Assembly: GCA_017463255.1 (NCBI GenBank)
Contig: JAFTPP010000015.1
Location: forward strand, 8,803 to 72,802
Reading direction: 5' to 3'
Origin: Lachnospiraceae bacterium
GTDB lineage: Bacteria; Bacillota; Clostridia; Lachnospirales; Lachnospiraceae
DNA length: 64,000 nt
Under the pieces are notes generated by a model that searched no databases, was not told the DNA's origin, and saw nothing but the letters and a program-made list of their open reading frames with translations. Position numbers and translations under genes: made by a program. Position 1 is the first letter of the stretch. Every line of letters starts with the position of its first letter. Below are positions 7,968 to 62,825 of this stretch, piece after piece.

Positions 7968-7968
<1 letters not shown>

Positions 7969-8174
7969 TGAAAAGTACACTGATTAAAGATACAACGAAA
8001 TCTGAACGAATTGCAATTATCAAAGAATGGATACCGGCTGATGACGGTATCCATGATTGTGATATTGATCTCTGGGATATGTACCATGATTATATAGAAG
8101 GTAAAAAAGAGATTGCAGAAATCAATGCAGAATTCAGTGAAAAATATTGTTTAAAAAATAAAAATATTTGTTGA
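7968..8174 (+). CDS. small hypothetical protein (68 aa) translationally coupled to lacZ
   Basis: Its ATG overlaps the lacZ TAA by 1 nt (TAATG). No recognisable motif. Confidence 0.4.
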
Positions 8175-8199
8175 CAAAGTGCATATAATATATTAAACT
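8171..8199 (+). promoter_or_regulatory. sigma-70-like promoter upstream of feoAB
   Basis: TTGACA at 8171-8176, a 17-nt spacer, then TAAACT at 8194-8199. The dyad GGTTAGA-GGCA-TCTAACC follows at 8208-8225. Confidence 0.45.
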
Positions 8200-8300
8200 C
8201 AGAATCGGTTAGAGGCATCTAACCCAAAATAAATGGTAAAATACGGAAATTCTTAAGATGCGTATGCAGGCTTATATGCAGGCAGTAGTTGGAGGCAGAT

Positions 8301-8513
8301 ATGAATTTAGCAGAAGCAGTTGAAGGAACAGAGTATATTATTAAAGAGATTGTAACAGACGATGATGAACTTAATGCTTTCTTGTTTTCTTTGGGATGTT
8401 ACAGTGGTGAACCAATAACCGTTATTTCCCATTTAAAGGGTGGATGTGTGGTTTCTATTAAGGATGCCAGATATAACATTGATAAGGAATTGGCAAGAGC
8501 TATTTCTATATAA
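8301..8513 (+). CDS. feoA: ferrous iron transport protein A
   Basis: 70-aa FeoA-like SH3 protein. GGAGG RBS at 8291-8295, then ATG at 8301. Lies directly upstream of feoB. Confidence 0.85.
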   Translation: MNLAEAVEGTEYIIKEIVTDDDELNAFLFSLGCYSGEPITVISHLKGGCVVSIKDARYNIDKELARAISI

Positions 8514-8520
8514 AAATAAA

Positions 8521-8545
8521 ATAGTGATGGAAATCACTATTTTTT
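8521..8545 (+). terminator. hairpin plus T-run between feoA and feoB (possible partial terminator)
   Basis: atagtgat-ggaa-atcactat followed by ttttt. Confidence 0.5.
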
Positions 8546-8595
8546 ATCACAACAAGTTAGTTGAAACTAACGATGGTTTCGGAATGGAGGAAATT

Positions 8596-39287: not shown

Positions 39288-41258
39288 TTATCCGTCGGTT
39301 AACAAAACGTTGAAATCATCCCGTTGGATATAGGATTGATGCAGATCTTTAATAAAATCAAAGTCCTTAGTTTCGTTATAAATTACTAATTCGCATATAT
39401 TACCTGTGAAGGATTGTTGGAAAACATCACCGCCAAGAATAATGGATTTCACATAGCGGTTGGTAGGAACATTTTGAACAATACCAACAACTTCACCGTT
39501 AATAAAGGCAACAGCAGTTTCTGTTTTAGCATTATAAGTGGCTGCGTAGTGTACCCATTTTCCCGGTAAGAGAGGAGCACCACTTACGTCGTACCAGCCA
39601 TTCACCTCTTTAGAATCACGGACTCTAAAGTCTGATACGCTATCCCATGCATATGGAATAATAGCACAGAAGCCGGTTTCGAATTTTGCATAAAAAGTAG
39701 CCGACCAAGCATGAATGTTATCAGGTTTAACCCACATGGAAATGGTATAGCTGTCATTTGCCATGGCAGTGGTAGGAATCCTGACAGTATTGGTTTCCAA
39801 AGGACCGCCGGGGAAATGTAAGGATTTTGCACCTTTAAAGATGCCGTCCTGATATTCAAGTCCCTCTCCGTGAATATATCCTTCCATGGTACCGTCCTCG
39901 GAACGAAGGTTTCCGTTAAGACGGAATGTATAATTGGAACGGATATGTGAAGTATATTCATCTGCAAAGGCTAAGAATTCCTCTAACTGTAATGGCTTGG
40001 CATACAAGAAGCCTTGTACAATAGGACAACCACAGCTGATAATAAAGTCAGCTTGTTCTTTTGTCTCGATACCTTCTGTTACTACGTCCATTTTTAAGTC
40101 ACGGCAAAGAGAGATTACGTTACGGATAACCTTTTTACCGCGAAGGGTATTAGAAGAAACATGGAGAAAATTCCTGTCAAGCTTAATGGTATCTACTTCC
40201 AAGTCTTTTAATAAGTTTAATGCTGAAAATCCGGAACCAAAATCGTCAATGGATACTAGAAATCCCAATCTTCTTAAGCGGTCTACTGTTTTAATTAATT
40301 CCTCATGGTCTTTAATAAAAATACTCTCCGTAATCTCAATTTCCAATTCTCTGGTAGGAATATGATATTTGTGCGCAAGGGACGCAAGGGTTTCCGGAAA
40401 GTTTTTGTGATATAAATGAAGGCGTGACATATTGACGGAAACAGGAATATGCTCAAAACGCTGTCCCACCCAAGATGATTTAATACGGCACACTTCTTCA
40501 AAAATATACATATCAAGCTTGGAAATAAATCCGTTCTTTTCAAAAAGAGGGATATAGGAAGCTGGGGGTCTGACTCCGTCTACGGGATGAACCCAGCGGG
40601 AAAGACCTTCTGCACCATACAATTCTGAGGTAATCATGTTAACCTTCGGTTGAAGATATACCACGAATTCTCCGTTTGCAAGAGCGTCTTCCATTTCCAA
40701 TTCAATATTACGGTTAATCTCAATGGTTTTATCATATGCTTTGTATACAGTATAACGGTTTTTACCGTCATATTTTGCCTGATACATGGCGGCATCACAT
40801 TTGGCTAAGACTTCGTCCAAAGACTGGGATACGGATTGGTCCATTACGATACCGATACTTAGTGAAATGAGGGATAATACGTCTTTACGATAGTCCATAT
40901 GTTCCAAGTTTAAAAGAAGCTTGTCCGCAATGTCCGTAATCTCTTTTTCAGTTGCAGAACCATCGAATAAAACAACGTATTCATCGCCACCGATTCTGGA
41001 GGCAAAACCATTGGTATAGGTTTCAATCATCTGGCTGATTCCGATTAAGAGCTTATCACCCATACTGTGTCCGTATACATCGTTGACACGTTTAAAATTA
41101 TCCACATCAAGAAACATTGCATGAACAATATTATCCTTGCCTAAGGAATAATAGTAGTCATACAATCCGCGACGGCTTGCAAGTCCGGTTAAGTAGTCTC
41201 TGTCAATGGGAGATACATTGAGACCGAGTCGTTTTTCTCTTTCTTTGATATTGTTCAT
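39288..41258 (-). CDS. GGDEF-EAL protein with C-terminal LamG/concanavalin-like domain
   Basis: GGDEF region RIGGDEYVVLF. EAL-domain motifs QPKV..AEGLSRW, ELEIEITES, DDFGSGFS, KLDR, EGIET, QGFLYAKP. C-terminal YTISMWVKPD...GKWVHYAATYN...INGEVVG resembles LamG. AGGAGG RBS before the ATG at 41258. Confidence 0.85.
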   Translation of the reverse strand: MNNIKEREKRLGLNVSPIDRDYLTGLASRRGLYDYYYSLGKDNIVHAMFLDVDNFKRVNDVYGHSMGDKLLIGISQMIETYTNGFASRIGGDEYVVLFDGSATEKEITDIADKLLLNLEHMDYRKDVLSLISLSIGIVMDQSVSQSLDEVLAKCDAAMYQAKYDGKNRYTVYKAYDKTIEINRNIELEMEDALANGEFVVYLQPKVNMITSELYGAEGLSRWVHPVDGVRPPASYIPLFEKNGFISKLDMYIFEEVCRIKSSWVGQRFEHIPVSVNMSRLHLYHKNFPETLASLAHKYHIPTRELEIEITESIFIKDHEELIKTVDRLRRLGFLVSIDDFGSGFSALNLLKDLEVDTIKLDRNFLHVSSNTLRGKKVIRNVISLCRDLKMDVVTEGIETKEQADFIISCGCPIVQGFLYAKPLQLEEFLAFADEYTSHIRSNYTFRLNGNLRSEDGTMEGYIHGEGLEYQDGIFKGAKSLHFPGGPLETNTVRIPTTAMANDSYTISMWVKPDNIHAWSATFYAKFETGFCAIIPYAWDSVSDFRVRDSKEVNGWYDVSGAPLLPGKWVHYAATYNAKTETAVAFINGEVVGIVQNVPTNRYVKSIILGGDVFQQSFTGNICELVIYNETKDFDFIKDLHQSYIQRDDFNVLLTDG

Positions 41259-41408
41259 ACAACCTCCTAAGCTCAAAAAAGGATGCCAAAGGTACTATTT
41301 TTTTCATTATAGCACTATTGTATATAAAAGCCAACAAATCATTGTAAAGTTACAAAATTTTTGGTATAGTAGGAGTACAAAAAATTGAGAAAAGGATAAG
41401 GTGAAGCT

Positions 41409-48767: not shown

Positions 48768-48833
48768 TTTTTTGATAAAATGAATAAAAAGAAGTATGAT
48801 CATCAGAATATCAGTAGATGGAAGGTGAAGATA

Positions 48834-50171
48834 ATGTTTAAAAGAAAAGTATACGAAGAATTACTGGCATGGAAAAAAGAATGGGACGGAAAATATGCAT
48901 GTTTGCTTGAAGGGGCAAGACGTGTAGGAAAGACAACTATCGCAGAGGAATTTGCCCGAAATGAATATGATTCTTATATACTGATTGATTTTTCGAATGC
49001 CAGTAAGGAAATGCTGGATATATTTGAAGACATTTCTAAGCTTGACCGTTTCTTTTTAAGATTGCAGATGGAAGCCGGTGTAGAACTTTATGAAAGAAAA
49101 TCAGTAATTATATTTGATGAGATTCAGTTGTTTCCAAAGGCGAGGCAGGCAATCAAACATCTTGTGAAGGATGGCAGATATGATTATATTGAAACCGGTT
49201 CTTTGATATCTATAAAGAAAAATGTAAAGAATATATTGATTCCGTCTGAAGAGCATAAAATTCATGTGTATCCAATGGATTATGAGGAGTTTTTATGGGC
49301 TACGGGAGGAAATCCCAATGTTCTGGATATGGCGTATAAGAGCAATATGGAACTTGGCAACGCTGCGAATCGTAATGCCATGAGAGATTTTCGGATTTAT
49401 ATGGCTGTGGGAGGAATGCCCCAGGCAGTAGAATGCTATATTTCCACAAATAGTTTTGAGTCTGTGGATAAAGTGAAGCGCGAAATACTGGAACTGTATT
49501 ATGATGATCTGAAAAAGATTGATGCATCAGGCAGAATAACAGATATGTATAAATCTGTTCCTTGCCAGCTTGCAGCAAAGAAGAAACATTATGCGATTAC
49601 TACAGCTACCGGAAAACAAAAAACAAGAAAAGATGAGGAACGTCTTTTTGAATTAATTGAATCAGGACTGGTATTACCTTGTTATAATGTGTTAAATCCA
49701 AGTGTTTCATTAGCACAGACAAAGGATATGAACTGTTTTAAGCTGTATTTGTCAGATATAGGTCTTTTTACTACGATGCTTTTTAATGATGCGCAAAATG
49801 GCGTAGAAGACATTTATAAGAAATTGTTGAGTGATACATTAACGGCAGATTTAGGATATTTGTACGAAAATGTAGTGGCGCAAGCGATAAAGGCCAGTGG
49901 AAGAGATTTGTATTATCACACATGGAGAAAAGAGGGAAGCACGCATTCATTTGAAATAGATTTCCTTATCACTTCCAAGAATAAGGTGGTACCAATAGAA
50001 GTAAAATCTGCGGCAATCAATAATCATAAATCAATTGACAACTTTGAAGTCAAATATTCAAAGCAGGTGGGAGAACGTTTCCTTTTGTCTCAAAAAGATG
50101 TGGGAAAAAACGGTTCATTGAAATTGAAACCGATATATATGATTTTGTTTTTACTAAAAGACTTGCAATAA
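48834..50171 (+). CDS. AAA-family ATPase with C-terminal DUF4143-type domain
   Basis: Walker A GARRVGKTT and Walker B IIFDEIQ. The C-terminal half resembles the DUF4143 architecture. Confidence 0.75.
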   Translation: MFKRKVYEELLAWKKEWDGKYACLLEGARRVGKTTIAEEFARNEYDSYILIDFSNASKEMLDIFEDISKLDRFFLRLQMEAGVELYERKSVIIFDEIQLFPKARQAIKHLVKDGRYDYIETGSLISIKKNVKNILIPSEEHKIHVYPMDYEEFLWATGGNPNVLDMAYKSNMELGNAANRNAMRDFRIYMAVGGMPQAVECYISTNSFESVDKVKREILELYYDDLKKIDASGRITDMYKSVPCQLAAKKKHYAITTATGKQKTRKDEERLFELIESGLVLPCYNVLNPSVSLAQTKDMNCFKLYLSDIGLFTTMLFNDAQNGVEDIYKKLLSDTLTADLGYLYENVVAQAIKASGRDLYYHTWRKEGSTHSFEIDFLITSKNKVVPIEVKSAAINNHKSIDNFEVKYSKQVGERFLLSQKDVGKNGSLKLKPIYMILFLLKDLQ

Positions 50172-50279
50172 CTGATGGAGAAAGTACGCAAGATAATACG
50201 CAAGATGACAATTCCTGACAAGCCAAATAGTAGAAACCAGAGATATGTAAAAGAGTAAAATTGGCAGGTGCATGGGGTT

Positions 50280-50315
50280 TTTCGAAAGTATAAAAATTTT
50301 AAAGTTTCGAAAGTG
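50280..50315 (+). promoter_or_regulatory. 36-nt element with two TTTCGAAA palindromic boxes 25 nt apart (third copy of the 61.5-kb repeat)
   Basis: tttcgaaagtataaaaattttaaagtttcgaaagtg is 31/36 identical to 61582-61617. It overlaps a putative -35, with TATACT at 50328-50333. Confidence 0.55.
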
Positions 50316-50364
50316 GCAGGAAATGCCGTATACTATATGTAGAGAATTAAGTGGAGGTGGTATC

Positions 50365-50724
50365 ATGGAAGTAAGAGAATTACGTTTACAAACAGGATTA
50401 AGCCAGAGTAAATTTGCTAAAATGTTTGATGTTCCGGTTTCTACTTTGAAAGACTGGGAACAGGAAAGAAGAAATCCTCCGGCATACGTTGTTAATATGA
50501 TGAGAACTATTTTGCAATATAAGGGGATGCTTATGAGCCAAAGTTATGTGGAAGCATGTGAAGCGAGAAGAAAGAGCGTGGAAAATGCTATGGCTATTAT
50601 GCTAAGTGCTACAAATGGTCCGGATGAATTGTTTTTAGAGGTTTTGAATTCCTATATTCTTGGGGAAATAACACTGGAAGAAATGGAAGATAGAATTGAA
50701 CGATTTGAGTATTTGGGAGCGTAA
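50365..50724 (+). CDS. XRE-type HTH protein fused to a VbhA-like (Fic antitoxin) C-terminal domain
   Basis: HTH LRLQTGLSQSKFAKMFDVPVSTLKDWEQ. The C-terminal ...NAMAIMLSATNGPDE...ILGEITLEEMEDRIERF resembles VbhA-family antitoxins in length and spacing. GGAGGTGG RBS. Stop lies 3 nt before the Fic ATG. Confidence 0.65.
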   Translation: MEVRELRLQTGLSQSKFAKMFDVPVSTLKDWEQERRNPPAYVVNMMRTILQYKGMLMSQSYVEACEARRKSVENAMAIMLSATNGPDELFLEVLNSYILGEITLEEMEDRIERFEYLGA

Positions 50725-50727
50725 TAT

Positions 50728-51437
50728 ATGAGTGGTGGAAAGAATTGTTACCCGGAAAGTGATGTCCTTATTAATAAATATAACATTCGCGAAAAGGAAC
50801 TTTTGGAAAAGTTTGAAATACAGAAAGTATTTGCAAAACTGTTAGGCTTGGATGTGAAGCCGACAAGGATTGCCTATACTTATGATGTGGGCACATGGTA
50901 AACGTTCATAAGTATTTGTTCGGGGATATTTATGAATGGGCAGGAACATTCCGAAAAGAGAATTTGTACAAGAGTGAGCGTGTTTTGTCCGGTGGTTTTG
51001 CAGAGTATGCGGACTACCATGAGATTGAGACGCGATTAGAAAGGTTGCTGCAAGAACACGCAAACATTGATTGGAGAAAGAATGCGAAGTGTGGAGAGGT
51101 AGTTTCGGATTTTTTGTTGGAATTATGGACTATCCATCCTTTTAGAGAAGGAAATACCAGAACCTGTATCACATTTCTGTGGCATTATTTAAAGGGTAAA
51201 GGTGTAGAGTTTCAAGTGGCTTTACTTAGGAATAACCCAATGTATGTGAGAGATGCGTTGGTTATGGCAAATTATGACCAGAAAGAGTACTTGAGACGGA
51301 TTATAGCAGATGCATTACAGGGAGAAACACAGGAGTCTGAATATTTAATGAATGAGGAGCAGGCAGGAGAGCAATATAAAATTGCGCAAGCAGATTATGA
51401 AGCGTTTAGAGAAAAGTATTCGATAAAGAAGGACTAA
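50728..51437 (+). pseudogene. Fic/DOC family protein, split by a -1 frameshift at a GGG run (50889-50891)
   Basis: Frame 1 reads MSGGKNCYPESDVLINKYNI...TYDVGTW*, stopping at 50899-50901. Frame 0 continues ...HMVNVHKYLFGDIYEWAGTFR...HPFREGNTRT. Adding one G gives a continuous 236-aa Fic-like ORF. Confidence 0.8.
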
Positions 51438-51878: not shown

Positions 51879-51986
51879 TTTTTATATTCTACAAATCACC
51901 AATGAAATTGTGGCTTGAGGAAATGAAACATTATCTAAGAAAGAAAACAAAGGATTGAAATGAAATATTGGAAAGGAGATACGGTC

Positions 51987-54900
51987 ATGTCATTAAAATC
52001 AACATTTTTAAAAGCTGCGATAAATATTTCTATTGCACTAGCCTTTCCGGAAGCAGTAATATTCCAGGGATTGTCAAGTGCTTCATTGGATTTTTTGGCA
52101 GATTGTTATGAGGATAAAAAAGAGAAGAAATCTAATGATATTACTTATAAACTTACGAAATTATATGAAAAATATTTTTCAGAGGCGTATTTGAAGGAAA
52201 ATGGTATTAATTATAAGAAGGTAGAATATTACAAAAGTCAGATTTTGGATGTTCTTGAGTATTCGAAAACAAGCGTTTCGCTTTTGGCGGAATGTAATAA
52301 TGATGCAGTGGCTCTGTGTGATTATATGATTTCGATATATAGAGATAATTGTTTGCATGGTATATTGGAAGATGAGGCGGATATTCGTAAGATATGTATA
52401 TTAATTCTTACGGAGATGATTGAGATTATTTGTTCTGAGCCAAGTTTTCTTTTAGATGGAATATTAGAATTATACCCACGTGTAATTCAAAATGAAAATG
52501 AAATAAGCGAATTAAAGAGATGTGTGGAGTTATTACAACATAAAATACTTCAGGAAGAGCCATTAGTTCCTAAATTTATAACTAATCCCCCATATGCTTT
52601 GGTACGTCATTTCATTGGAAGAGAGAGAAACGTTGAAGAAGCTTTTGAAGCTCTTGTAAATGACCATGCTGTTTTAATGTATGGTATTGGTGGAATTGGT
52701 AAGACTGAGATTGCAAAGCAGGTGATCAATTTAATTATGAATGTGCCTTGTGATAAACATGGTATTGAGCAGATTGCCTGGATAGATTATGACAATAAAG
52801 ATATTCAGACATGCATTGCAAGGTGTATTCTTGCAACTAGCCAAATTACAGATAAGAATGAGGCTTGGATGCATGCATTAAGGATAATTTTAGATGAGGG
52901 AAAGAGATTACTTTTGGTTATAGATAATGTTGAGCGGCTTGATGATGAAAATTTGTTGAGACTTACACAATTACCATGTAAAATTTTACTCACAAGTCGT
53001 GTAAGAGAATTAGCTAACTTTTCTATACTTGAAGTAGAACATTTATCAAAAGCAGAATGCATTACCCTTTTTCAAAAGTATTATACAAAACAGCCAGATA
53101 CTCGGAGAACAATAGAAGAAATTGTTGACTTGGCAGATTATCATACGGTGACAGTAGAACTGTTGGCGAAAATAGCTAATTTAGAAGAATGTTCTCTAAT
53201 GAAATTTTTAGAACGATTAAGGTTGCTAGGTTTTAAACTGAGTGACGAGGAGGTAACAGCAAATCATGAAAAACTTCATAGAGAAGAAAAGATTATACAA
53301 CAGCTTTCAAAATTGTTTTCTATTGTGCATCTTACAAAAGAGGAAGCTTCTTTGATAGTACCTGTATCGGTTATTCCATCCATGGCTTTCTCATACACAA
53401 ATGCAAAGGAGTGGTTTGGTCAGAAAAATCATAAAAACTTAGAGCGTTTAGTAAATACGGGGTGGCTGCAGGATGCTTCAAAGGATGGGGTAAAATATTA
53501 TATGATTCATTCCGTTATTGCCTCGGCTATCCGTTTCCAGTATCAAGAAGTATTATACGAAAAATGTAGAGATTTCATGGTGATACTTACAAAGGAAATG
53601 CAATATCCAAATGATGAACATGGAGCGAGTAAAAAGTATCTTATACAATTTTGCTGGTCAATCAATGACTTGCTTGGGGATCATATGGAAGAAGAGCTGG
53701 ATGCAGATTTTCTTTTGTATTTATCCAGAATTTATTGTGATGTTGCTAATTTTGAACAGGCATTTCAGATACTCCGACGTTGTGTTCGTATCTATAAAAG
53801 AAATGAGGAGTATATTGTAAAATTAATCAGTTGTTATAATCAAATAGGCATCGTATATAAAGGGCAGGATAAAAATAAATATGCATTAACGCAGTATGCT
53901 AAAGCGTTCAAATTGGCAAATAATTATCCTATAGAAGGTGCTCTTTGGGTTACTTTGCTTACCGATGCCGCTTTAGTATTTCTTAAAACAGATGGAGAAA
54001 TGCTTGGAGGATTTGCAGATTGCTATTTTAGAGAGGCTTACAATATTGCTCTTCAAGTATATGGAAATGGTCATTCAGAAACGCGAAAGATTAAAACCTT
54101 ATGGAATCATTGTATTGCGTCTTATGATCCAGAATCTGCAAATCAAAAATTCCTTGATATTATTCAAGAAGAGGAGCAGATATATTCAGAGAATAGTATG
54201 CAATTAGCTGAGACATATGCATCATATGCTATTTTTCTTTACGAAATGGGCGAGTATTCACAGGCTTTAGTTTATATTAATAAAGCCTATAATATTAAGA
54301 ATGTTGTTTTAGGAGAGGAACATCCAGAAACAACAGATTTACGTAATTATCGCGGGTTAATTTTGGAATACATGGGTAGTCGTGATGAAGCAAGGGAGGA
54401 ATTTGAAGTTTGTTTAGAAATTGCCCAAAAAATAGATGGTGAAGAAAGTACGACAGCGGCAGTGGCTTATAATAACTTGGCACTATTTTATTTTGATAGT
54501 GAAGAGTATTCCGCAGCTTTGGAATATTTTAAAATGGCAGAACATATTTATAGGAAATTTCAGAGGTTATATAATGAGGATTTCGTGCAAGGGTTAGCAA
54601 CGGCACTTCGAAATGAAGGGCAGTGTTATAGCGAATTAGCTGATAAAGAGGGTGAAAATTTTATTGTGGCTACTGACAATGCTATAGAAAAATTTAAAGA
54701 AGCTATTAGCATTCTGAATAGTGATTTTATTCGTTATAAATTTGATATTGCACAGGTATACGGAGCACTTGCTTCCACTTATGCACGAAAAGGTTGGAAA
54801 AGAGATGCAGAGTTTAGTTTCAAAAGAGCAATTAAAGATACTATTGATAGTAAGAATGAAACGCATCCGGGATTAGCATATTTATACAATAACTATGCCA

Positions 54901-55064
54901 TGTTTTTAGATGCCATTGATAGGAAAGAAGAAGCACTAGAACATCTTATTAAAGCAGAACAGATACTAGTTGTTAATGGTGTGACTTCGGATAATAATAA
55001 TTTGCGTATCGTTAGGGGAGCTATAATTGCGATTAAGAATAATTTGCAGAAATCCACAGATTGA
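51987..55064 (+). CDS. STAND NTPase: unknown ~215-aa helical N-terminal domain, NB-ARC-like P-loop ATPase, C-terminal TPR array
   Basis: Walker A GIGGIGKTEIAK, Walker B LLLVIDNVE and ILLTSR (NB-ARC-like). The C-terminal repeats are of the kinesin-light-chain TPR type (LA..Y...G.Y..AL....A..I). ATG at 51987 has AGGAGA 7 nt upstream; ATG at 51960 is also possible. Confidence 0.8.
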   Translation: MSLKSTFLKAAINISIALAFPEAVIFQGLSSASLDFLADCYEDKKEKKSNDITYKLTKLYEKYFSEAYLKENGINYKKVEYYKSQILDVLEYSKTSVSLLAECNNDAVALCDYMISIYRDNCLHGILEDEADIRKICILILTEMIEIICSEPSFLLDGILELYPRVIQNENEISELKRCVELLQHKILQEEPLVPKFITNPPYALVRHFIGRERNVEEAFEALVNDHAVLMYGIGGIGKTEIAKQVINLIMNVPCDKHGIEQIAWIDYDNKDIQTCIARCILATSQITDKNEAWMHALRIILDEGKRLLLVIDNVERLDDENLLRLTQLPCKILLTSRVRELANFSILEVEHLSKAECITLFQKYYTKQPDTRRTIEEIVDLADYHTVTVELLAKIANLEECSLMKFLERLRLLGFKLSDEEVTANHEKLHREEKIIQQLSKLFSIVHLTKEEASLIVPVSVIPSMAFSYTNAKEWFGQKNHKNLERLVNTGWLQDASKDGVKYYMIHSVIASAIRFQYQEVLYEKCRDFMVILTKEMQYPNDEHGASKKYLIQFCWSINDLLGDHMEEELDADFLLYLSRIYCDVANFEQAFQILRRCVRIYKRNEEYIVKLISCYNQIGIVYKGQDKNKYALTQYAKAFKLANNYPIEGALWVTLLTDAALVFLKTDGEMLGGFADCYFREAYNIALQVYGNGHSETRKIKTLWNHCIASYDPESANQKFLDIIQEEEQIYSENSMQLAETYASYAIFLYEMGEYSQALVYINKAYNIKNVVLGEEHPETTDLRNYRGLILEYMGSRDEAREEFEVCLEIAQKIDGEESTTAAVAYNNLALFYFDSEEYSAALEYFKMAEHIYRKFQRLYNEDFVQGLATALRNEGQCYSELADKEGENFIVATDNAIEKFKEAISILNSDFIRYKFDIAQVYGALASTYARKGWKRDAEFSFKRAIKDTIDSKNETHPGLAYLYNNYAMFLDAIDRKEEALEHLIKAEQILVVNGVTSDNNNLRIVRGAIIAIKNNLQKSTD

Positions 55065-55348
55065 AAGTAGTAATATTTTCTATTCGCGGTACAAATCACA
55101 TGAAATAATCATAATTGTCAATGATGTGATATACTATATATCAAAGAATTTATAAAGAAACATATTTGTATTTGAGGTGTCTTGTGACAATAGAAGAATT
55201 TAATAATTGCGGTAAGAAAATAGATGTGGAATTTAAGAAGACAGAGAATATTACTACTTCTATCAATAATGTAATAGGAAGTACAAATAATGTGGAAAGT
55301 ATTATTGCAAAATAGTATGAGTATTCCAGTGTAAAAGAATTATATGAA

Positions 55349-55423
55349 ATCGTATATTATCATTATCTTATCCACCACACAAAAATGATAGGAAGATAAG
55401 TTGGATAATATACGATTTTTTTT
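55349..55423. terminator. long imperfect hairpin plus T8 run between the STAND gene region and the recombinase 3' end
   Basis: atcgtatattatc ... gataatatacgat arms (55349-55361 / 55404-55416) with inner cttatc/gataag pairing, then tttttttt. Confidence 0.6.
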
Positions 55424-56342
55424 ATATATGAAAATCTTTTCTAGGATGTTTAGAGGTAAGAATATCTCTTTGTTTGGACATTGCAACATGTGTATATATT
55501 TCTGTAATGTTTATGGAGCTATGACCTAACATTTCTTGAATGTAACGTATATTAACATCAGCTTCTAAAAGGCAGGTTGCAAAAGTATGCCGAAACATGT
55601 GTGGTGTGATGTGTAGTTCTATTGCGGCAAGTGAAGTGTATTTGTTAATCATTCTTCGAACTGCTTGATCAGACAGTGGTCTGCCGGATTGATTCACAAA
55701 GAAACAATTGCATGCTTGAATTTCATTTACGAAGTCTTCCTTATATTCTTGTAAAATTGTAATCACGTCATCATTTCCTATTTGAATTTTTCGCTCTTTT
55801 GAACCTTTTCCATAGATTAAAATTGTTTTCTCGTACAGATTGACATCAAATGGTTTTAGAGAACATAATTCGGTGACTCGAATACCGGTTGCAAATAGAA
55901 GTTCAATTATGGTAGCGTCTCTTAAGGCATTTCGCTTTTGGAATGTAGTAGGAGCAGTAGTACGTTGAGTGTAAATTGTGGATAAAAATGTTTCTACTAT
56001 GTACAAGGGTATCGTTTTAGGTAGAATGGCAGGCTCGCGAAACTTTATTTGAATCCGATTAAATGGATTTCTTTCAATTATTTCTTTGTATTCAAGATAG
56101 CGAAAAAATGCTTTTGTAGACGCTAGCTTTCTTTTTACAGTTTTAGGTTTGTATGTTTGATGGAGTTCTGCTATATATTGTTCAATTATATCAGGGGTGA
56201 TTCGGGTTATTTCAGTTGTTGGAATGTCTGAACAAAACTGTTTCAAATCTATTTGGTATGCTTTTAGGGTTTTTGAATCAAGACGTTTTTGTTCTTGGCA
56301 GTAAATGAGGTAATTATTGATTTGATTTTGTAAACTATTCAT
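55422..56342 (-). CDS. site-specific tyrosine recombinase, XerC/XerD-like (306 aa, no arm-binding domain)
   Basis: SAM-like N-domain (KTLKAYQIDLKQF). Catalytic motifs ATGIRVTELCSL (Arg), HMFRHTFAT (HxxR) and LGHSSINITEIYTHV (Tyr). Confidence 0.88.
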   Translation of the reverse strand: MNSLQNQINNYLIYCQEQKRLDSKTLKAYQIDLKQFCSDIPTTEITRITPDIIEQYIAELHQTYKPKTVKRKLASTKAFFRYLEYKEIIERNPFNRIQIKFREPAILPKTIPLYIVETFLSTIYTQRTTAPTTFQKRNALRDATIIELLFATGIRVTELCSLKPFDVNLYEKTILIYGKGSKERKIQIGNDDVITILQEYKEDFVNEIQACNCFFVNQSGRPLSDQAVRRMINKYTSLAAIELHITPHMFRHTFATCLLEADVNIRYIQEMLGHSSINITEIYTHVAMSKQRDILTSKHPRKDFHI

Positions 56343-56433
56343 GTTGATTTCTCCTTGTGTGCATCTATAAGTATTTTGGTTACATATTAATATAACACAG
56401 CTGGAAATAGATGATATAATGTAGTAAAATAAA

Positions 56434-56463
56434 TGAAGGATAATCGTTTGTTATCCGTTAAAT
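56434..56463 (+). repeat. left copy of perfect 30-nt inverted repeat (TGAAGGATAATCGTTTGTTATCCGTTAAAT) with internal dyad GGATAA-N7-TTATCC
   Basis: Read directly. Exact reverse complement at 61114-61143. Lies 23 nt upstream of the STAND ATG (56487) and 91 nt from the recombinase start codon. Confidence 0.9.
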
Positions 56464-56486
56464 ATATAAAATATTAGGAGAAACAA

Positions 56487-58880
56487 ATGGGATTTTACAA
56501 AGAAGAAAAAGTGCAAAATATAGATAGGGTATTTTTAGATAGAGAGGATATTTTAAAAAAAATAGAAGAAAATGTACTTTCATATAAAGACAATGAAAGA
56601 TTCTACAAACTATTCTCATTCTATGGCATGGGTGGAATAGGAAAAAGTCGATTAGTTAGTCAGATTTATGATACATATAATGGTACAGATTTAACATTAT
56701 ATAAATTTCATTTAGAAATATTGAATCACGAAACAATACCTTCTATTTTATTACATATCAGAAGAGAGTTTTCGTATACTCCTCATTTTGACTACGTTCT
56801 GCTTAGATATTGGGATTTTATTAATTATGACAGGGCTAACAAAGAGATCTTTGAAAATGTCATAAGTAAATCTATTAGATTAATAAGTAGTACAGTCGGT
56901 AATCTTCTATTATCTGGCTGCTGTAACCTGGAGAACATTGTTAAAATAATATTAGAGGAATACGAGGAGAGAGAAATTAATAGCGACGAAATAGATGATG
57001 TTACCAAATTGCTACAGGGGAAAATTGAAGATTTGCATTATTATATGTCTAAAACCCTAGCACAAGACATTGAAAAAGAAATTAAAGAATTAAAACATCT
57101 TTTCATATTTGACGCATATAATCGGGATAGAACTTCTAGAAAATATGACTGGCTAAAATATTTTATTAATAATTTTGAGAACGGAATGTTTATTGTCACT
57201 TCAAGAGAACCGTTAGAATGGTTTGAACAATGCAAAGTAGATACGTCTGTGGTGGAAAATATTCCTATAGATTCTATTCCGCAAGATGTTGTACGAGAGT
57301 ATTTGTTAGAACAAAAGTATAGTAATAATCAAATTAATTTGATTATTGAGAAAACTGATTGTATTCCATTGTACTTAGACATAGCATTAAGAATTTCAGA
57401 AAAAGGCTTCGGTAATGAGACGTTTGTAGGATTTTATGATAAAAAAGATTTAGTAAAACATTTGCTTAGCCATTTATCATCGGACGAACAAATTATTATA
57501 GAATATTTAGCAGTAGTTAGGTTATTTAACGAAGAAATATATAATAATGCATTAGAATTTAATAAACTATCATATTTAAATCATTCTTTTTCTAAATTTA
57601 AAGAATGTACTATTTTGCGTTATGTTGAAGAATTTAATGGATTATATAAGATACATTCTATCTTAGCAAATAATATTTCTGTTCTGATGGAGAAACGTTT
57701 ACGTCATAAAATAATAGAAGACTATATTAACTTCATTTGGGCAAGAATCACCACTAGTGAATTATTATATAATGATATAAAATATAACTTCGTTTTGAAC
57801 GTTTACATTTTAGTAGAAAAGGAACACATATCTGTGGATAAGGATATTTCAGAAAAACTGCTAGATATGTATTTCTATTTAGTTGATAAAAGTTATGAAA
57901 TGGAATTTATTAACCGTGTTATTTCTTTGGAAAACGAAGAACAGAGCCCATTAAAGTATATTTATCAATATTTTAAAGGGAATACGGAGAGATTAAGTAA
58001 TATTAAAAAAGGACTACGAAGTTTAGAAAGTATTCCAATTTCTGAATGTAATTTTGGAAAGCATATAAACTCTCTACAATGTGACATTAACTATTTATTG
58101 TCCATATCTGGTAAATATAATGAAGCAGAAGAAAAGATGGATGAATTTGTAAAAAAATTAAAAGAAAGTGACGTTGGTGAACGTTATTATCTAAAAGGCA
58201 TTATTTATGATTGTGACATGAAAATGTTACGCGGAAAATTCAATTCATCTATTGAAGGATTATTACTTTTAATAAACCAAGAGACAAATCAGAACCTTTT
58301 ATTTGAAATTAACAAAGCGATTGGACACAGCTATCGATTTAATTTTCTTTTAGATAAGGCGATTGAACAGTATTCAATATGTGGCATAGATAAGAATTTA
58401 GACTATTATCTTACTGTATATTGTGAAACAAATTGTTACTTTAATCCAAAAAAAGTGTTTAAATATTATAACCACGCAATAGAAGAAAATAGAAAACATA
58501 ACAACCATAATAATCTTGGAAAAATATATTATTCGATGGCAATTGCAAAAATTGTTAAAACAGAATATTTGTCAGCAGAAAAATATATAAAAAAGGCATA
58601 CACTGAGTTTAAGGGCACAAAATATCAAGCGGGAAATTTATTTGTTTTAATTGCAGAAGCCTATTTAGAATATGGCAAATTTAGAAGAATATCGTCTAAG
58701 ACAATTAAGAAAATTACTGAATATGTAGATGGTATAAATGGAATATACGAATATCTTCTCTTGCCACTATATGTAGCAAGAAAAGATATTAACAAAGTAA
58801 ATGAATTCAAAGAAAAGTTTGAATGGATTTCATATAATGAAACTATTGAAAATATAAATACATTTATTAATCAACTATAA
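56487..58880 (+). CDS. STAND-type P-loop ATPase without N-terminal effector domain, C-terminal helical/TPR-like repeats
   Basis: Walker A at residue ~47 (YGMGGIGKSRLV), Walker B HLFIFDAYN, MFIVTSREP. Long AT-rich helical C-terminal region with TPR-like segments. Confidence 0.75.
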   Translation: MGFYKEEKVQNIDRVFLDREDILKKIEENVLSYKDNERFYKLFSFYGMGGIGKSRLVSQIYDTYNGTDLTLYKFHLEILNHETIPSILLHIRREFSYTPHFDYVLLRYWDFINYDRANKEIFENVISKSIRLISSTVGNLLLSGCCNLENIVKIILEEYEEREINSDEIDDVTKLLQGKIEDLHYYMSKTLAQDIEKEIKELKHLFIFDAYNRDRTSRKYDWLKYFINNFENGMFIVTSREPLEWFEQCKVDTSVVENIPIDSIPQDVVREYLLEQKYSNNQINLIIEKTDCIPLYLDIALRISEKGFGNETFVGFYDKKDLVKHLLSHLSSDEQIIIEYLAVVRLFNEEIYNNALEFNKLSYLNHSFSKFKECTILRYVEEFNGLYKIHSILANNISVLMEKRLRHKIIEDYINFIWARITTSELLYNDIKYNFVLNVYILVEKEHISVDKDISEKLLDMYFYLVDKSYEMEFINRVISLENEEQSPLKYIYQYFKGNTERLSNIKKGLRSLESIPISECNFGKHINSLQCDINYLLSISGKYNEAEEKMDEFVKKLKESDVGERYYLKGIIYDCDMKMLRGKFNSSIEGLLLLINQETNQNLLFEINKAIGHSYRFNFLLDKAIEQYSICGIDKNLDYYLTVYCETNCYFNPKKVFKYYNHAIEENRKHNNHNNLGKIYYSMAIAKIVKTEYLSAEKYIKKAYTEFKGTKYQAGNLFVLIAEAYLEYGKFRRISSKTIKKITEYVDGINGIYEYLLLPLYVARKDINKVNEFKEKFEWISYNETIENINTFINQL

Positions 58881-59862
58881 ATTGTATAATCTGTTTTGGC
58901 TGGCAGCATTTGTTCTTTTCAGCAAAAGGAATATTTATATCATTGGTTTCATATATTTGAAATAATACATCATAATCTGATATCCAATTATTTCTTATAT
59001 ACTTTTCAGCAACTTTTAAGTTTGTTTTTGAACCGTTACGTAAAGGAAAGTAGACCATACTTTCCTTTTTTACTAATGCCTCATATATTCCAGATGTTTC
59101 TTGACCATAAAGGTGACTAAACGAACATAGAGATTGATTATAAGCAGATTTATGGATGCATTCTAATAAACCATCGGAACTATTAGTTGCTTCTATTATT
59201 AAATCATATTCTATGTTGGGTTTAGCTTCTTTACATAAAAATAAATTTACAATATTAGTTCGTTTAGCTTCATTTATGTCATATATATATACGTTTTTTT
59301 TTATACAACAACTTAAATAGAATGTACACAACATTCCTATATTTCCTGTTCCATACACTAGAATGGAATTGAGTTTTGTTATATCATAATGATTCATTGC
59401 GTGTATTATACAAGATAGTGGTTCGATACATGTTGCCCTATAAATATACTGTGATGAAATATTAGTCTTTACCAAATAACTATAGTGTATATCTGCATAT
59501 ATAGAAAAGGCTCGATTGGTAAATAACGCAATATCATTGTCTTTACATAAATGGCTCTTATTTTGATTACAGTATTCACATTCCATGCATCTATAATTAA
59601 AATCTGAAACAACAAAATCTCCAATGTCGTAATCTAAGCAAACATCGCAATTATAATCTAAGACTTCTGCAACAAATTCATGGCCTAACGAAACTGGATA
59701 ATTTTTTCTATATCCTAAAAACTGAGAATAGTCGCCTCCACATATTCCACAGTATAGATATTTAACACGTACATAATTGAGAGGTATCTCATTGGGTAGA
59801 TTAGTAGATACATTAACAAAATTATGTGCGTTTTTAAGATATGAAACAATATTTTTAGGCAT
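58867..59862 (-). CDS. zinc-dependent medium-chain dehydrogenase/reductase (threonine/sorbitol dehydrogenase-like)
   Basis: CGICGGD, GHEF, structural Zn lobe CMECEYCNQNKSHLC, Rossmann GTGNIG. Start ATG overlaps the upstream gene by 8 nt, with an AAAGGAG RBS. Confidence 0.8.
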   Translation of the reverse strand: MPKNIVSYLKNAHNFVNVSTNLPNEIPLNYVRVKYLYCGICGGDYSQFLGYRKNYPVSLGHEFVAEVLDYNCDVCLDYDIGDFVVSDFNYRCMECEYCNQNKSHLCKDNDIALFTNRAFSIYADIHYSYLVKTNISSQYIYRATCIEPLSCIIHAMNHYDITKLNSILVYGTGNIGMLCTFYLSCCIKKNVYIYDINEAKRTNIVNLFLCKEAKPNIEYDLIIEATNSSDGLLECIHKSAYNQSLCSFSHLYGQETSGIYEALVKKESMVYFPLRNGSKTNLKVAEKYIRNNWISDYDVLFQIYETNDINIPFAEKNKCCQPKQIIQFIVD

Positions 59863-61096
59863 TATCGACTCCTTTAATTTCTATAATAAATTGCTCTATT
59901 TCCTTATGTAACGAAGAACTATATTCTATTTCATAATACGAAGTTGCGAGTAAAGATGCAAGTTTAGGAATATCATTTTCGCATAATCCACACACGGTAG
60001 CTGCTGATAAGCCTAGACGAATACCATAGCCTAAATCATAAGGAAGTAATCTATAATTTGTTAAAAATCCGTATTTCCCCCAACGCTTATATAATTCAAA
60101 TGCGTCTTTTTTATCTGCACACTGAATCCAAATATGATGGGTATGCGTTTCTGATGGATACAATTCACATTGTTGTACAACATTCAATCCATGTCGTATC
60201 AATTCTTTTTTTAATAATTCCGTATTTATTAACATTTGGGTCGATAATGTTTTATATGTCTCAAACTTATCTAACATTAATCCTAAAGAGTAGATTGCGT
60301 ATGGATGCATATTTGAGACATAAGTTCCAATATTTGAATAGATTTTCTCCCACATAGCATCTTTTTCTTTTGAACAATATAATGCACGTTGAGGTCCGGG
60401 GAAATTTTTATGTGTGGTAGATAAAATTGCATCAAATCCCATATCAAATGGAGAAACATAATCGCCTGCTAATATATTCGTTAGATACTGAGACGCATCA
60501 TAAATTTTATAAATTTCTTTATATTCCGATAGCCATGAAAAATCTTCGTAAATCATTCCCTCGCTTCTATCAATAAAAATAACCTTAGGGTTTACTCGTT
60601 CTATTAGTTGCTTGCTTTTCATAACATCGATGCGTTTATTACTGTAATCAATTTCCAACTCATATACATTTAGCCCTAATCGTTCTAGAATAGTTTTTGT
60701 TGCCATGTGCCCACCAGCCTTTTCTGGCAAAATAATAACAGTATCGTTGATGCTTGTAATGGACATGAAAACCGTTGTATGTGCGTGTAATCCTGAAAAA
60801 AAGCGCATAGATATAGTTTTTGCATTTAAAATTTCACACCATGAGTTATAAATTTTATCAATATCGTAGGCAATTACATCTCGATTGGCAAACTGGATTT
60901 TTGTATTTAATTGTTGCTCGCTCGAACGCATTTTATCACTGTTATAGATCCCATATATAAAACCAGTTCCTAATTCTATGCATTCTAAATCTGGAACATT
61001 TTCTACAGGATTCAATATTAATTGCTTTTTGGAAAGCTCTTCTTGCTGTTTTAATCCATTTTTAAGTGACTCTACAAGTTTGGTATATTTCCCCAT
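59855..61096 (-). CDS. serine hydroxymethyltransferase-fold PLP-dependent enzyme (divergent GlyA-like)
   Basis: LSTTHKNFPGPQRA matches the SHMT PLP-lysine motif (TTTHKTLRGPR). LNPVEN resembles the SHMT N-terminal LI(A/P)SEN. Start at MGKYTKL, with AAAGGGGA upstream. Confidence 0.7.
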   Translation of the reverse strand: MGKYTKLVESLKNGLKQQEELSKKQLILNPVENVPDLECIELGTGFIYGIYNSDKMRSSEQQLNTKIQFANRDVIAYDIDKIYNSWCEILNAKTISMRFFSGLHAHTTVFMSITSINDTVIILPEKAGGHMATKTILERLGLNVYELEIDYSNKRIDVMKSKQLIERVNPKVIFIDRSEGMIYEDFSWLSEYKEIYKIYDASQYLTNILAGDYVSPFDMGFDAILSTTHKNFPGPQRALYCSKEKDAMWEKIYSNIGTYVSNMHPYAIYSLGLMLDKFETYKTLSTQMLINTELLKKELIRHGLNVVQQCELYPSETHTHHIWIQCADKKDAFELYKRWGKYGFLTNYRLLPYDLGYGIRLGLSAATVCGLCENDIPKLASLLATSYYEIEYSSSLHKEIEQFIIEIKGVDNA

Positions 61097-61113
61097 TTCT
61101 TGTTCCCCTTTCA

Positions 61114-61143
61114 ATTTAACGGATAACAAACGATTATCCTTCA
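61114..61143 (-). repeat. right copy (reverse complement) of the perfect 30-nt inverted repeat
   Basis: The plus strand reads atttaacggataacaaacgattatccttca. Lies 17 nt upstream of the SHMT-like ATG on the minus strand. Confidence 0.9.
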
Positions 61144-61288
61144 GAAACGTAGATTTTAGAGAAATGGAAAAAGTTATATTAATGAGAAGATAATATAAAA
61201 AATTGGAGAAATATCTGCTTCACCAATTATACTTGTGAGAGCCATTTCCTTATAAGGAAAAAAATTATGGTGAGGTAAATAAGAGATC

Positions 61289-61516
61289 ATGGAGGAGGTA
61301 TTCAAAGAAGCGCAATTATGCAAAATGATTGGCGAGGATGATGCTTTAGAAATGCCGATAGATGCGAGATATATTAACGCAGACAATATTGTTACGTTAA
61401 TCTCATATGATTTTATGAAATGGAGACCTACATTTGAAAAAGTAGTTGAATTGATAGAGGTGCGAGGACTACCACTTTTTTACCAACAACCATTTGTTGC
61501 ACTTTCAAAACAATAA
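61289..61516 (+). CDS. hypothetical small protein (75 aa)
   Basis: ORF only. Weak RBS (GGTGAGG 12 nt upstream). No motif recognised. Its 3' end overlaps the first 36-nt repeat. Confidence 0.3.
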   Translation: MEEVFKEAQLCKMIGEDDALEMPIDARYINADNIVTLISYDFMKWRPTFEKVVELIEVRGLPLFYQQPFVALSKQ

Positions 61517-61617
61517 AAAAATTAAAGTTTTGAAAGTGAACTGTTGAATAAGTTATATATAAGGTGTTATAATACAATTGGTTTCAAAACAATAAAAAAA
61601 TTAAAGTTTCGAAAGTG
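61503..61617 (+). promoter_or_regulatory. two 36-nt direct repeats (35/36 identical, 79-nt period) flanking a strong promoter-like sequence upstream of the second DUF4143 ATPase
   Basis: Copies at 61503-61538 and 61582-61617 (tttcaaaacaataaaaaaattaaagttt[t/c]gaaagtg). Between them: TTGAAT at 61544-61549, 18-nt spacer, TG-extended TATAAT at 61568-61573. Confidence 0.7.
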
Positions 61618-61625
61618 GTGAAGAT

Positions 61626-62825
61626 ATGAAGACGATTGTAAGAGAAAGATATTTTGAAAGAATTAAAGCATTAAAGGATACTCCTGATATAAAGATTATT
61701 ACTGGTATCAGACGTTCTGGGAAATCTAATTTGATGCAGGCATATATTAATTATTTAAGAAAAGAGTTTGAAGATGTCAATATTATCTTTATTGACTTTA
61801 TGGATTTGGAATTTGAAGAAATAAAGGAATATCACGCTTTGCACAAGTATGTGGAAGATAGATACAATAAGGAAAAGCAGAATTATCTATTTGTGGACGA
61901 AGTACAGTTATGTCCAAATTTTGAGTTGGCAATCAATAGCCTATATTCAAAAAATAAATATGATATCTATATAACCGGTTCAAATGCTTTTTTGCTTAGC
62001 GCTGATTTGGCAACTCTATTCACTGGGAGATATATTGAAATTCATATGTTCCCATTCAGTTTTAGGGAGTATTGTGAATATTATAGTGACCAAGCTGACA
62101 AGGACAAATTGTTCGAAGAATATTTTGTCAAGGGTGGTTTGGCAGGTTCATATGCATACAACACTGACTTGGATAGAACTACTTATATCAAAGAAGTGTA
62201 CGAAACTATTGTAAATAGAGATTTAGTACAAAAATATAATTTGCCTGATACGCAGGTGCTCCGTCAGTTAAGTGAGTTTCTGATGGATAATATAAGCAAT
62301 TTAACTTCTCCGAATAGGGTAAGTGATATTTTGACCGCTAATGAAGTACCGACAAATCATGTGACAATAGGAAAATATATCAAGTATTTATGTAATGCAT
62401 TTATATTTTATGATATTAAGAGATACGACATACGAGGCAAGAAATATTTAGAAACCTCGGATAAGTTTTATATGTGTGATACCGGAATGCGTTATGCAAT
62501 ATTGGGTAGTCGAAACATGGATTATGGACGTGTATATGAAAATATTGTATGCGTAGAGCTTCTGCGTAGGGGATATGAAGTTTATGTTGGAAAACTCTAT
62601 CAAAAAGAAATTGATTTCGTTGCACAACGTGGTAGTGAGAAAATATATATTCAGGTAAGCGATAATATATCTAATCAGGAAACTTTTGAGAGAGAATATT
62701 CTCCGTTGCTGCAAATAAAGGATGCCTATCCAAAGATGATTATAGCAAGGACGAAACATCCTAAATACACATATGAGGGAATTGAAGTGTACGATATCGC
62801 TGATTGGTTACTAAATACTGTCTAA
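61626..62825 (+). CDS. AAA-family ATPase with C-terminal DUF4143-type domain (second copy)
   Basis: Walker A GIRRSGKSNLM and Walker B LFVDEVQ. Same architecture as 48834-50171. Confidence 0.75.
   Translation: MKTIVRERYFERIKALKDTPDIKIITGIRRSGKSNLMQAYINYLRKEFEDVNIIFIDFMDLEFEEIKEYHALHKYVEDRYNKEKQNYLFVDEVQLCPNFELAINSLYSKNKYDIYITGSNAFLLSADLATLFTGRYIEIHMFPFSFREYCEYYSDQADKDKLFEEYFVKGGLAGSYAYNTDLDRTTYIKEVYETIVNRDLVQKYNLPDTQVLRQLSEFLMDNISNLTSPNRVSDILTANEVPTNHVTIGKYIKYLCNAFIFYDIKRYDIRGKKYLETSDKFYMCDTGMRYAILGSRNMDYGRVYENIVCVELLRRGYEVYVGKLYQKEIDFVAQRGSEKIYIQVSDNISNQETFEREYSPLLQIKDAYPKMIIARTKHPKYTYEGIEVYDIADWLLNTV

Follow-up and report, generated by a model that had tools for sequence, protein, structure and literature searches.

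A 64,000-nucleotide stretch of Lachnospiraceae bacterium DNA (assembly GCA_017463255.1, contig JAFTPP010000015.1, positions 8,803 to 72,802 of the forward strand; hereafter the window) contains a 4,710 bp segment, 56434-61143, that is enclosed by perfect 30-nt inverted repeats and encodes three proteins. On the plus strand is an open reading frame (ORF) of 797 amino acids (aa) for an NTPase of the STAND (signal transduction ATPases with numerous domains) class; on the minus strand are ORFs of 331 aa, for a zinc-dependent medium-chain dehydrogenase/reductase (MDR), and of 413 aa, for a pyridoxal phosphate (PLP) enzyme of the serine hydroxymethyltransferase (SHMT) fold. There is no other gene within the segment. 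These three genes are the cargo of a programmed DNA inversion. A gene for a XerC/D-like tyrosine recombinase lies 91 nt outside the left repeat, and the sequence makes it reasonably probable that this enzyme flips the segment and that a promoter fixed outside it selects which strand is expressed, either STAND or the two enzymes (Table 1).

An earlier note on this DNA, prepared from the sequence alone, had proposed a three-gene module in which both units are preceded by the same 30-nt leader. A check of co-localisation found the module to be conserved and co-inherited in 39 loci, but the unit has a fourth gene, that of the tyrosine recombinase. Identical copies of the leader do precede both units, but the element is a site for recombination rather than an RNA leader or an operator, and the segment flips. 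The trio does not form a single operon; its two units are convergent on opposite strands.

Inversion of the segment in place

The two copies of the 30-nt element, TGAAGGATAATCGTTTGTTATCCGTTAAAT, at 56434-56463 on the plus strand and 61114-61143 on the minus strand, are 100% identical and constitute the sole long inverted repeat of the region. Because the two units converge on opposite strands, the leader copies in front of them are at the same time inverted repeats that bracket the trio. Each repeat contains a core, GGATAAT-N5-GTTATCC in the window and GGATAAT-N5-RTTATCC as the consensus across loci, made up of two inverted half-sites around an asymmetric spacer. This is the layout of tyrosine recombinase sites, well established for lox, FRT and dif. 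Apart from the two repeat cores themselves, the window has no good match to the core pattern.

Relatives of the cassette (loci are denoted here by L numbers) have repeats of 24-159 nt at the same position, and repeats plus core flank the cassette in essentially every locus with enough flanking sequence; a search with the core pattern found sites in distant loci that local alignment had missed. In L001, L009, L028 and L030 the repeats are long (73-159 nt) and contain two core-like dyads, which are perhaps traces of nested capture.

The first hint of inversion came from public (Logan) contigs with STAND homologues, many of which are about 4.7 kb in length, the distance from repeat to repeat. Comparisons of orientation drew on human-gut metagenome contigs. 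In two pairs of loci, L025 with L027 and L024 with L029, the middle 4.83 kb align collinearly with 99.6-99.9% identity, and the flanks swap sides and reverse their orientation at 96.7-99.5% identity. Since the centre is collinear while the flanks swap reversed, each pair represents one chromosomal locus with the segment in both orientations. Four loci, L059-L062, share the arrangement of the window, the STAND protein being identical in L060-L062 and 99% identical in L059. In L063, again with an identical STAND protein, the far flank TCCATTTCTCTAAAATCTACGTTTC is joined to the repeat and the STAND leader; in the window and in L059-L062 the same far flank is joined to the SHMT leader instead. In L005 the recombinase-side flank is found at both ends of the segment. 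The first nucleotides of L063 (55 nt) and of L005 (77 nt) are precisely a k-mer of flank plus repeat, after which both contigs continue into orientation-specific sequence; start points of this kind match the assembly graph expected of one sample with both junctions. Across assemblies the two orientations are about equally common.

The point of exchange can be placed with the help of L025, L026 and L027, whose repeat arms differ at two positions. The outer single-nucleotide polymorphism (SNP), AAAG[A/G]ATAAT, keeps with the flank and the inner one, ATTAT[C/T]TAAT, keeps with the segment, a partition which implies that exchange takes place within ATAAT-ACACA-ATTAT. The same partition of SNPs is seen in an unrelated cassette (L068/L069, described below). 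The exact stretches shared by the arms of L025, L026 and L027 are 20 nt at most, and because no shared stretch is as long as 21 nt, ambiguity in the de Bruijn graph cannot explain the existence of both forms.

Probable selection of the expressed strand

Neither unit is likely to have a promoter of its own inside the segment, because the repeats end 23 nt before the ATG of the STAND gene and 17 nt before that of the SHMT-like gene. The latter start is the ATG at 61096, which is served by the ribosome-binding site AAAGGGG; the earlier TTG given by the ORF lister falls within the repeat. Outside the repeats, a perfect TATAAT ending 4-22 nt upstream of the core is present on 10 of 45 distinct flanks, versus 2.6% of random windows from the same loci. 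Nine independent loci have a perfect TATAAT on exactly one flank and none has it on both, and in several of the one-flank loci a good -35 hexamer (TTGACT, TTGAAT, TTGCTA or TTGAAA) is found at a distance of 17-18 nt. On the recombinase side, the second of two overlapping promoter candidates, TGGAAA-17-TAAAAT, belongs to a sequence, TGGAA...TAGTAAAAT, that is conserved between the window, L004 and L066. Where the two units meet, the 3' ends of the STAND and MDR genes either overlap (4-26 nt) or are no more than 2 nt apart in 39 of 39 loci, which leaves no space for a terminator, and no terminator-like sites were detected between 55000 and 62000 in the window.

Selection of the strand by flipping appears likely from this geometry, since the -10 box sits outside one repeat and the convergent units leave no room for a terminator. 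A fixed promoter just beyond one of the repeats (in the window, at 56392-56430 on the side of the recombinase) would transcribe one whole strand of the cassette. In the orientation found in the window this would give STAND mRNA together with antisense RNA to the MDR-SHMT pair, with STAND on and the enzymes off or low; in the flipped orientation it would give SHMT-MDR mRNA and antisense RNA to STAND. The outcome would be two cell types, one with STAND on and the other with the enzymes on, and a heritable and reversible choice between them that is mutually exclusive or strongly biased. The earlier suggestion that the enzymes might act as the effector of the STAND protein loses force here, as the arrangement of promoters and terminators points to alternate rather than joint expression.

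A number of observations weigh against this model. The putative promoters are matches to a consensus in DNA rich in A+T, and a scan of the whole 55000-62000 region did not rise above chance (41 found, 47 expected) and by itself did not tell which flank is active; the position-specific comparison across loci said more. A survey of how neighbouring genes are oriented was no guide. Adjacency and site architecture are the sole grounds on which the recombinase is assigned as the invertase, and L001 and L032 have no recombinase homologue of this family in the contig sequence examined. A link to defence, to which we return below, comes from neighbouring genes only, PADLOC having found nothing for the trio. 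The far flank of the window also holds a -10 match at five of six positions, TAAAAT; the 159-nt repeat of L028 has TTGGAA-17-TATAAG at both ends (read by eye); in some loci, L068 for example, adjacent operons run into the cassette at its second side; and read-through from the recombinase gene is possible where that gene is co-directional. Loci with second-side promoters or read-in of this kind may transcribe both units in both orientations. Finally, the strict co-inheritance of STAND and the enzyme set over deep divergence also fits proteins that act together.

That last point leads to the alternative that survives best, namely a single co-expressed system of all three proteins, driven by promoters on both flanks, in which STAND is the sensor or regulator and the enzymes are the effector or ligand-maker. 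Flipping would then do no more than change the promoter that serves each unit, and so tune their ratio, or would be a side reaction of cassette capture and exchange between recombinase docks. Co-inheritance, the second -10 match in the window, the promoter-like sequence in both long L028 repeats and the operons that read in from the second side, in L001 as well as L068, would all be expected of such a system, as would the movement of cassettes between docks (cassettes of 98-100% identity beside recombinases of 50-82% identity, and a different cassette in L066). It accounts poorly, however, for the nine loci with a perfect -10 on one flank and the lack of any with two, or for the overlapping stops without a terminator in 39 loci, where simultaneous expression would bring head-on collisions and full-length double-stranded RNA; and orientations that are about equally common in assemblies are what a switch in use would give. 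We consider a co-expressed system unlikely, if still a serious contender.

Much less can be said for the 30-nt element as a shared leader or operator, either a transcription factor site or an RNA element, that involves no DNA rearrangement. The element is a dyad, as operators are, and would fall in the 5' untranslated region of both units, but both orientations are observed and the exchange point is inside the dyad; moreover, a recombinase adjoins the cassette in most loci, the leaders have no Rfam match (the only one recorded, to alpha_tmRNA at E 0.1, is a chance match within the SHMT gene) and the cassette encodes no DNA-binding regulator. We regard this explanation as very improbable. A transposon or other mobile element, or a pair of orientations produced by faulty assembly, has next to no chance of being correct: terminal inverted repeats, a G+C content of 28% against ~38% around and the many Logan contigs of repeat-to-repeat length, which a 30-nt repeat alone gives at k=31, are set against the lack of a transposase in the segment and of a target-site duplication, against flanks that are identical in both forms (inversion in place, not re-insertion), against the short shared stretches of the L025/L027 arms, which show that the junction k-mers come from real reads, and against the orientation-specific continuation of L063 and L005.

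Table 1 Features of the invertible segment and its flanks (window coordinates)
Feature	Position	Strand	Remarks
XerC/D-like tyrosine recombinase (REC), 306 aa	55422..56342	-	Outside the segment, divergent from the cassette; presumed invertase
Candidate outside promoters reading into the cassette	56392..56430	+	ATAACA-17-TGaTATAAT (56392-56420); TGGAAA-17-TAAAAT (56402-56430)
Left inverted repeat	56434..56463	+	Core GGATAATCGTTTGTTATCC at 56438-56456
Effector-less STAND NTPase with C-terminal TPR-like domain, 797 aa	56487..58880	+	Sole cassette gene on the plus strand
Zn-dependent MDR dehydrogenase, 331 aa	58867..59862	-	Stop end overlaps that of STAND by 14 nt
SHMT-fold PLP enzyme, 413 aa	59855..61096	-	Stop overlaps the MDR start by 8 nt
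Right inverted repeat	61114..61143	-	Core at 61121-61139
Far-flank promoter-like match, weaker; promoter role uncertain	61153..61182	-	Consensus match TTAATA-18-TAAAAT

The STAND protein

The 797-residue P-loop protein had been described as lacking an effector domain, with its Walker A motif near residue 47, and this is borne out: the motif, GMGGIGKS, occupies residues 47-54 and 18 disordered residues precede the NTPase. In the AlphaFold model (predicted local distance difference test score, pLDDT, 83.6) the NTPase has helical and winged-helix parts and is followed by TPR-like helices that extend to the C-terminus, with no effector domain at either the N- or the C-terminal end. A weak Pfam match to NB-ARC covers residues 21-68, and the closest fold to the model in the PDB is the STAND-TPR protein 6mfv (E 1.4e-9). 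PADLOC assigned no family to STAND or to its distant relatives, and no relatives were found in IMG/VR viral contigs or in PLSDB plasmids.

The STAND family is small and uniform, with 304 representatives (50% clustering, E<=1e-3); most of the best 150 are ~800-835 aa in length. The C-terminal half of STAND is strongly conserved, which would be easier to reconcile with an invariant ligand than with a rapidly changing phage protein. The STAND face of the cassette is, tentatively, a ligand-sensing NTPase switch.

The two enzymes

The motifs quoted for the two enzymes in the earlier note are all present in the sequence, as is the 8-nt coding overlap of the MDR and SHMT-like genes, ATGCCTAA. The SHMT-like protein carries TTHKNFPGPQ and exceeds the threshold of the Pfam SHMT model (3e-10; 39.9 versus 27), a score that supports the fold only. 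It misses the GlyA cut-off, with 113 bits against 335 for NCBIfam NF000586 (SHMT), and reaches 84 bits against a cut-off of 650 for TIGR04506 (fluorothreonine transaldolase). Its best sequence match in the PDB is ObiH (7k34, E 4e-18) at an identity of only ~19-20%, and when folds are compared ObiH, with a template-modelling (TM) score of 0.86, stands slightly above SHMTs (~0.80). SHMTs are marked by an N-terminal motif, YAEG...RYYGG, that serves substrate and folate, and by RGPR after the PLP lysine. In the present protein the SHMT alignments begin at residue 88, the N-terminal motif is unrecognisable by eye and the PLP lysine is followed by PGPQ, as in ObiH. Residues H131, D204, K234 and R366 of ObiH (listed in PMC10495429) align with the family-invariant GGH (H130), D200, K230 and R360. 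Both sequence and fold place the PLP enzyme nearest to ObiH, an L-threonine transaldolase.

The MDR protein contains CGICGGD, GHEF, EPLS, Cx2Cx2Cx7C (CMECEYCNQNKSHLC) and GTGNIG, that is, both zinc sites and the dinucleotide-binding motif. It matches Pfam ADH_N (1e-12) and is nearest to polyol and threonine dehydrogenases; among NCBIfam equivalogs the highest score is 62 bits, for TDH (cut-off 380), and none is reached. No NCBIfam family scored above its cut-off for any protein of the trio or for the recombinase. Transaldolases give off acetaldehyde and require an aldehyde acceptor (PMC10495429), so a dehydrogenase partner that supplied the acceptor or cleared the acetaldehyde would be chemically sensible. 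With less confidence, we would predict that the enzyme face acts on a beta-hydroxy amino acid, L-threonine for example, by aldol or transaldol chemistry, and that this is coupled to an NAD(H)-dependent interconversion of an alcohol and an aldehyde. A housekeeping glyA/tdh pair was also considered and rejected: all homologues of the SHMT-like and MDR proteins whose neighbourhood was examined sit in this cassette.

The recombinase

The recombinase matches Pfam Phage_integrase (2e-41) together with a SAM-like N domain, scores 236 bits against a cut-off of 335 for TIGR02224 (XerC) and 63 bits against 221 for the tyrosine-type DNA invertase model NF007370, and finds XerD (1a0p, 3e-32) in the PDB. 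The catalytic R-K-HxxR-H-Y motifs are intact (ATGIRVTEL, GKGSKER, HMFRH, LGHSS, EIYTH). Its family is far larger than that of STAND, with at least 7,834 clusters at E<=1e-40.

Homologues of the recombinase adjoin the cassette in 22 loci. They are found on the STAND side in 11 distinct places (among them the window, which is the same place as L060, and L004, L009, L013, L024, L025, L030, L033, L052 and L053) and on the enzyme side in 10 (L026-L029, L035, L038, L039, L041, L056 and L057). Where the recombinase gene reads towards the cassette, its stop codon lies within the core (...N E G stop, AATGAAGGATAA). From its position and the architecture of the sites, the adjacent recombinase is probably the enzyme that catalyses the flip.

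Conservation, variants and exchange of cassettes

The convergent layout, STAND on one strand and MDR-SHMT on the other, is found in 39 loci in unrelated genomic contexts, and is maintained down to identities of 25-29% for STAND, 40-47% for MDR and 48-50% for SHMT. The hosts are Lachnospiraceae and other Clostridia from gut samples. Two isolate or MAG assemblies, L007 (contig end at 11719) and L008 (contig end at 9879), break in the SHMT N-terminus and in MDR, respectively, and not at the repeats.

Several variants of the cassette exist. In one, SHMT is fused to a GNAT domain. The cassette of L038 and L014 measures 6.3 kb: STAND occupies one strand, and the other carries NTP_transf_5, SHMT and MDR as well as a dTMP-kinase-like gene, which is located past STAND. 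In L011 and L012, NTP_transf_5 is accompanied by a 155-aa protein and the kinase, without SHMT or MDR, and L042 has a GHMP kinase only. In all of these STAND is alone on one strand and every enzyme gene is on the other. Eight proteins from these sister cassettes were run through PADLOC, with no match except a weak one, to PDC-M51B, for the dTMP-kinase-like protein.

The recombinase family also serves other cargos with the same core. Glycosyltransferases are among them, as is an ATP-grasp enzyme that has a further P-loop NTPase as its partner. In L068 (8922-11359) and L069 (4247-6684) a 2.4-kb cassette in which a GT2 glycosyltransferase gene converges on that of a 442-aa protein is flanked by the core GGATAATTCGTAGTTATC. 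It is present in opposite orientations in the two samples, adjoining an identical recombinase (P0268) that is 75% identical to that of the window. In L066 (89-3693) an ATP-grasp (Ddl-like) enzyme converges on an 812-aa P-loop NTPase; the recombinase there (3787-4707) is 90% identical to that of the window and the recombinase-side flank is nearly identical, with a different cassette. The 812-aa protein has no BLAST similarity to the STAND protein of the window and was not counted as a member of the STAND family. Taken together, the recombinase family looks like a general platform for the flipping of two-faced cassettes.

Cassettes also appear to move. The proteins of L024, L025 and L028 (cassette at ~3900-8800) are 98-100% identical, their recombinases are only 50-82% identical and their flanks are different. 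Because near-identical cassettes adjoin divergent recombinases, and because the similar dock of L066 holds other cargo, we conclude that cassettes are exchanged between docks. Double recombination at the two cores is one possible route.

In the Roseburia sp. 499 chromosome (L064, CP135164.1), a recombinase 77% identical to that of the window is followed by a single perfect dyad, GATAATTCTGTATTATC, at 8996-9012. No partner site for this dyad was found within 8 kb. The dyad adjoins an HNH and AAA_15/SMC_N gene pair, a pairing that we take to resemble the Septu defence system.

Comparison with known systems

The closest parallel in layout is provided by the G segment of phage Mu and the C segment of P1, flipped by Gin and Cin, in which a segment of a few kb with short inverted repeats carries convergent gene sets past a fixed outside promoter, with the recombinase gene adjacent. 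Gin and Cin, however, belong to the serine invertases and depend on Fis and an enhancer, unlike the XerC/D-like tyrosine recombinase found here, and the Mu segment swaps homologous tail-fibre variants with a constant 5' part in common, whereas the present cargo comprises unrelated complete genes on a bacterial chromosome. In enzyme type the system is nearer to fimS with FimB/FimE, C. difficile RecV, the invertible promoters of Bacteroides and the type I restriction-modification hsdS 'epigenetic invertons' (PsrA/CreX), all of which place a tyrosine recombinase beside inverted repeats and show both orientations in a population; phase-variation switches based on tyrosine recombinases are common in gut bacteria (PMC7672463, PMC9881135, PMC11892184). 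In these switches either a promoter some hundred base pairs long is turned or parts of one coding sequence are shuffled, in contrast to the 4.7 kb and three complete genes that would here be turned past a fixed promoter. Keyword searches of the literature on programmed inversions and invertons revealed no mention of either this cargo or this architecture.

Integrons share with the cassette a XerC/D-related recombinase divergent from a fixed promoter (a putative one here) that faces promoterless cargo across a recombination site, and the exchange of cargo between platforms. They differ in having attC hairpins and an array of cassettes, where the present loci have two inverted double-stranded cores, one two-faced cassette and inversion. 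The recombinase scores 98 bits against a cut-off of 265 for the integron-integrase model TIGR02249 and its sites are simple inverted dyads, which sets it apart from integrons proper.

Like Avs/AVAST and other NLR-like STAND proteins, the STAND protein combines a P-loop NTPase with a TPR-type sensor region and shares its island with defence-type genes; unlike them it has no effector domain and no PADLOC match, and its C-terminal region is highly conserved instead of diversified. The PLP enzyme shares the SHMT-type fold-type I PLP fold and the PLP lysine with ObiH, LipK, FTase and SHMT, and PGPQ with ObiH; it differs from ObiH and SHMT in its low identity and its scores below the NCBIfam cut-offs, and we found no described counterpart to its pairing with an MDR in an invertible cassette. 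The view of the earlier note that no described defence system matches the trio was upheld, with no PADLOC hits, no NCBIfam family above cut-off and no description in keyword searches of the literature. The switch mechanism is probably of a known type, and the cargo, with its two faces of unrelated complete genes, is probably previously undescribed in the literature that was searched.

What had been an unexplained trio becomes a defined device, composed of a recombinase, the core GGATAAT-N5-RTTATCC, a putative outside promoter and a two-faced cassette. It extends what is flipped in abundant gut Firmicutes beyond promoters and parts of coding sequences to whole multi-gene units. An effector-less NLR-like protein whose expression is probably exclusive with that of a conserved enzyme set also constrains models of either. 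Such loci are under-reported, because short-read assemblies break or scramble at the repeats.

Genomic setting and possible role

The G+C content within the cassette is 28% (window 56000-61000) versus ~37-41% over most of the window, consistent with horizontal acquisition. Neighbouring genes are often of defence type: NB-ARC-TPR, PDC-S01 and Fic in the window, HD-CE and HicB in L004, PIN_8 in L038, and SLATT_3 and AAA_15/AAA_21 in L068. Because the islands that hold the cassettes are rich in such genes, the device may well be a bet-hedging switch between STAND and enzyme states, possibly in the face of phage or another fluctuating stress. A more elaborate scheme, which we put forward as a long shot, is an integron-like Lachnospiraceae platform, made up of a XerC/D-type recombinase, a fixed promoter and a core site, that captures, exchanges and flips two-faced cassettes. 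In the STAND cassettes the two faces would be antagonistic parts of a single system: enzyme-on cells would make or destroy a threonine-derived molecule that their STAND-on sisters would sense through the conserved TPR pocket, and a clone would split into producers and responders, or into two anti-phage states.

The surroundings of the segment hold further genes of note. Beyond the recombinase, at 51960-55064 on the plus strand, is an unrelated STAND protein of 1,034 aa with an N-terminal region of ~215 aa, an NB-ARC domain and strong TPR_12/TPR_10 matches; no core site flanks it. Two AAA_14/DUF4143 ATPases are encoded at 61626-62825 and 48780-50171, both on the plus strand, the first of which matches the PADLOC candidate family PDC-S01 (1e-153); for the second the scan covered Pfam only. 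A Fic protein (50895-51437) and a helix-turn-helix (HTH) protein (50272-50724) are also encoded here, and with the two ATPases they make this end of the window resemble a defence or variable island. A 36-nt hairpin element (CACTTTCAAAAC...GTTTTGAAAGTG) is present in two direct copies, at 61503-61538 and 61582-61617, which are 97% identical and 79 nt apart and are located in the interval from a 75-aa ORF to the PDC-S01 gene. Elsewhere in the window, and unrelated to the cassette, a GGDEF-EAL protein whose C-terminal domain is Laminin_G_3 (concanavalin-like) is encoded at 39288-41276 on the minus strand among ordinary genes for carbohydrate use (GH43, arabinofuranosidase).

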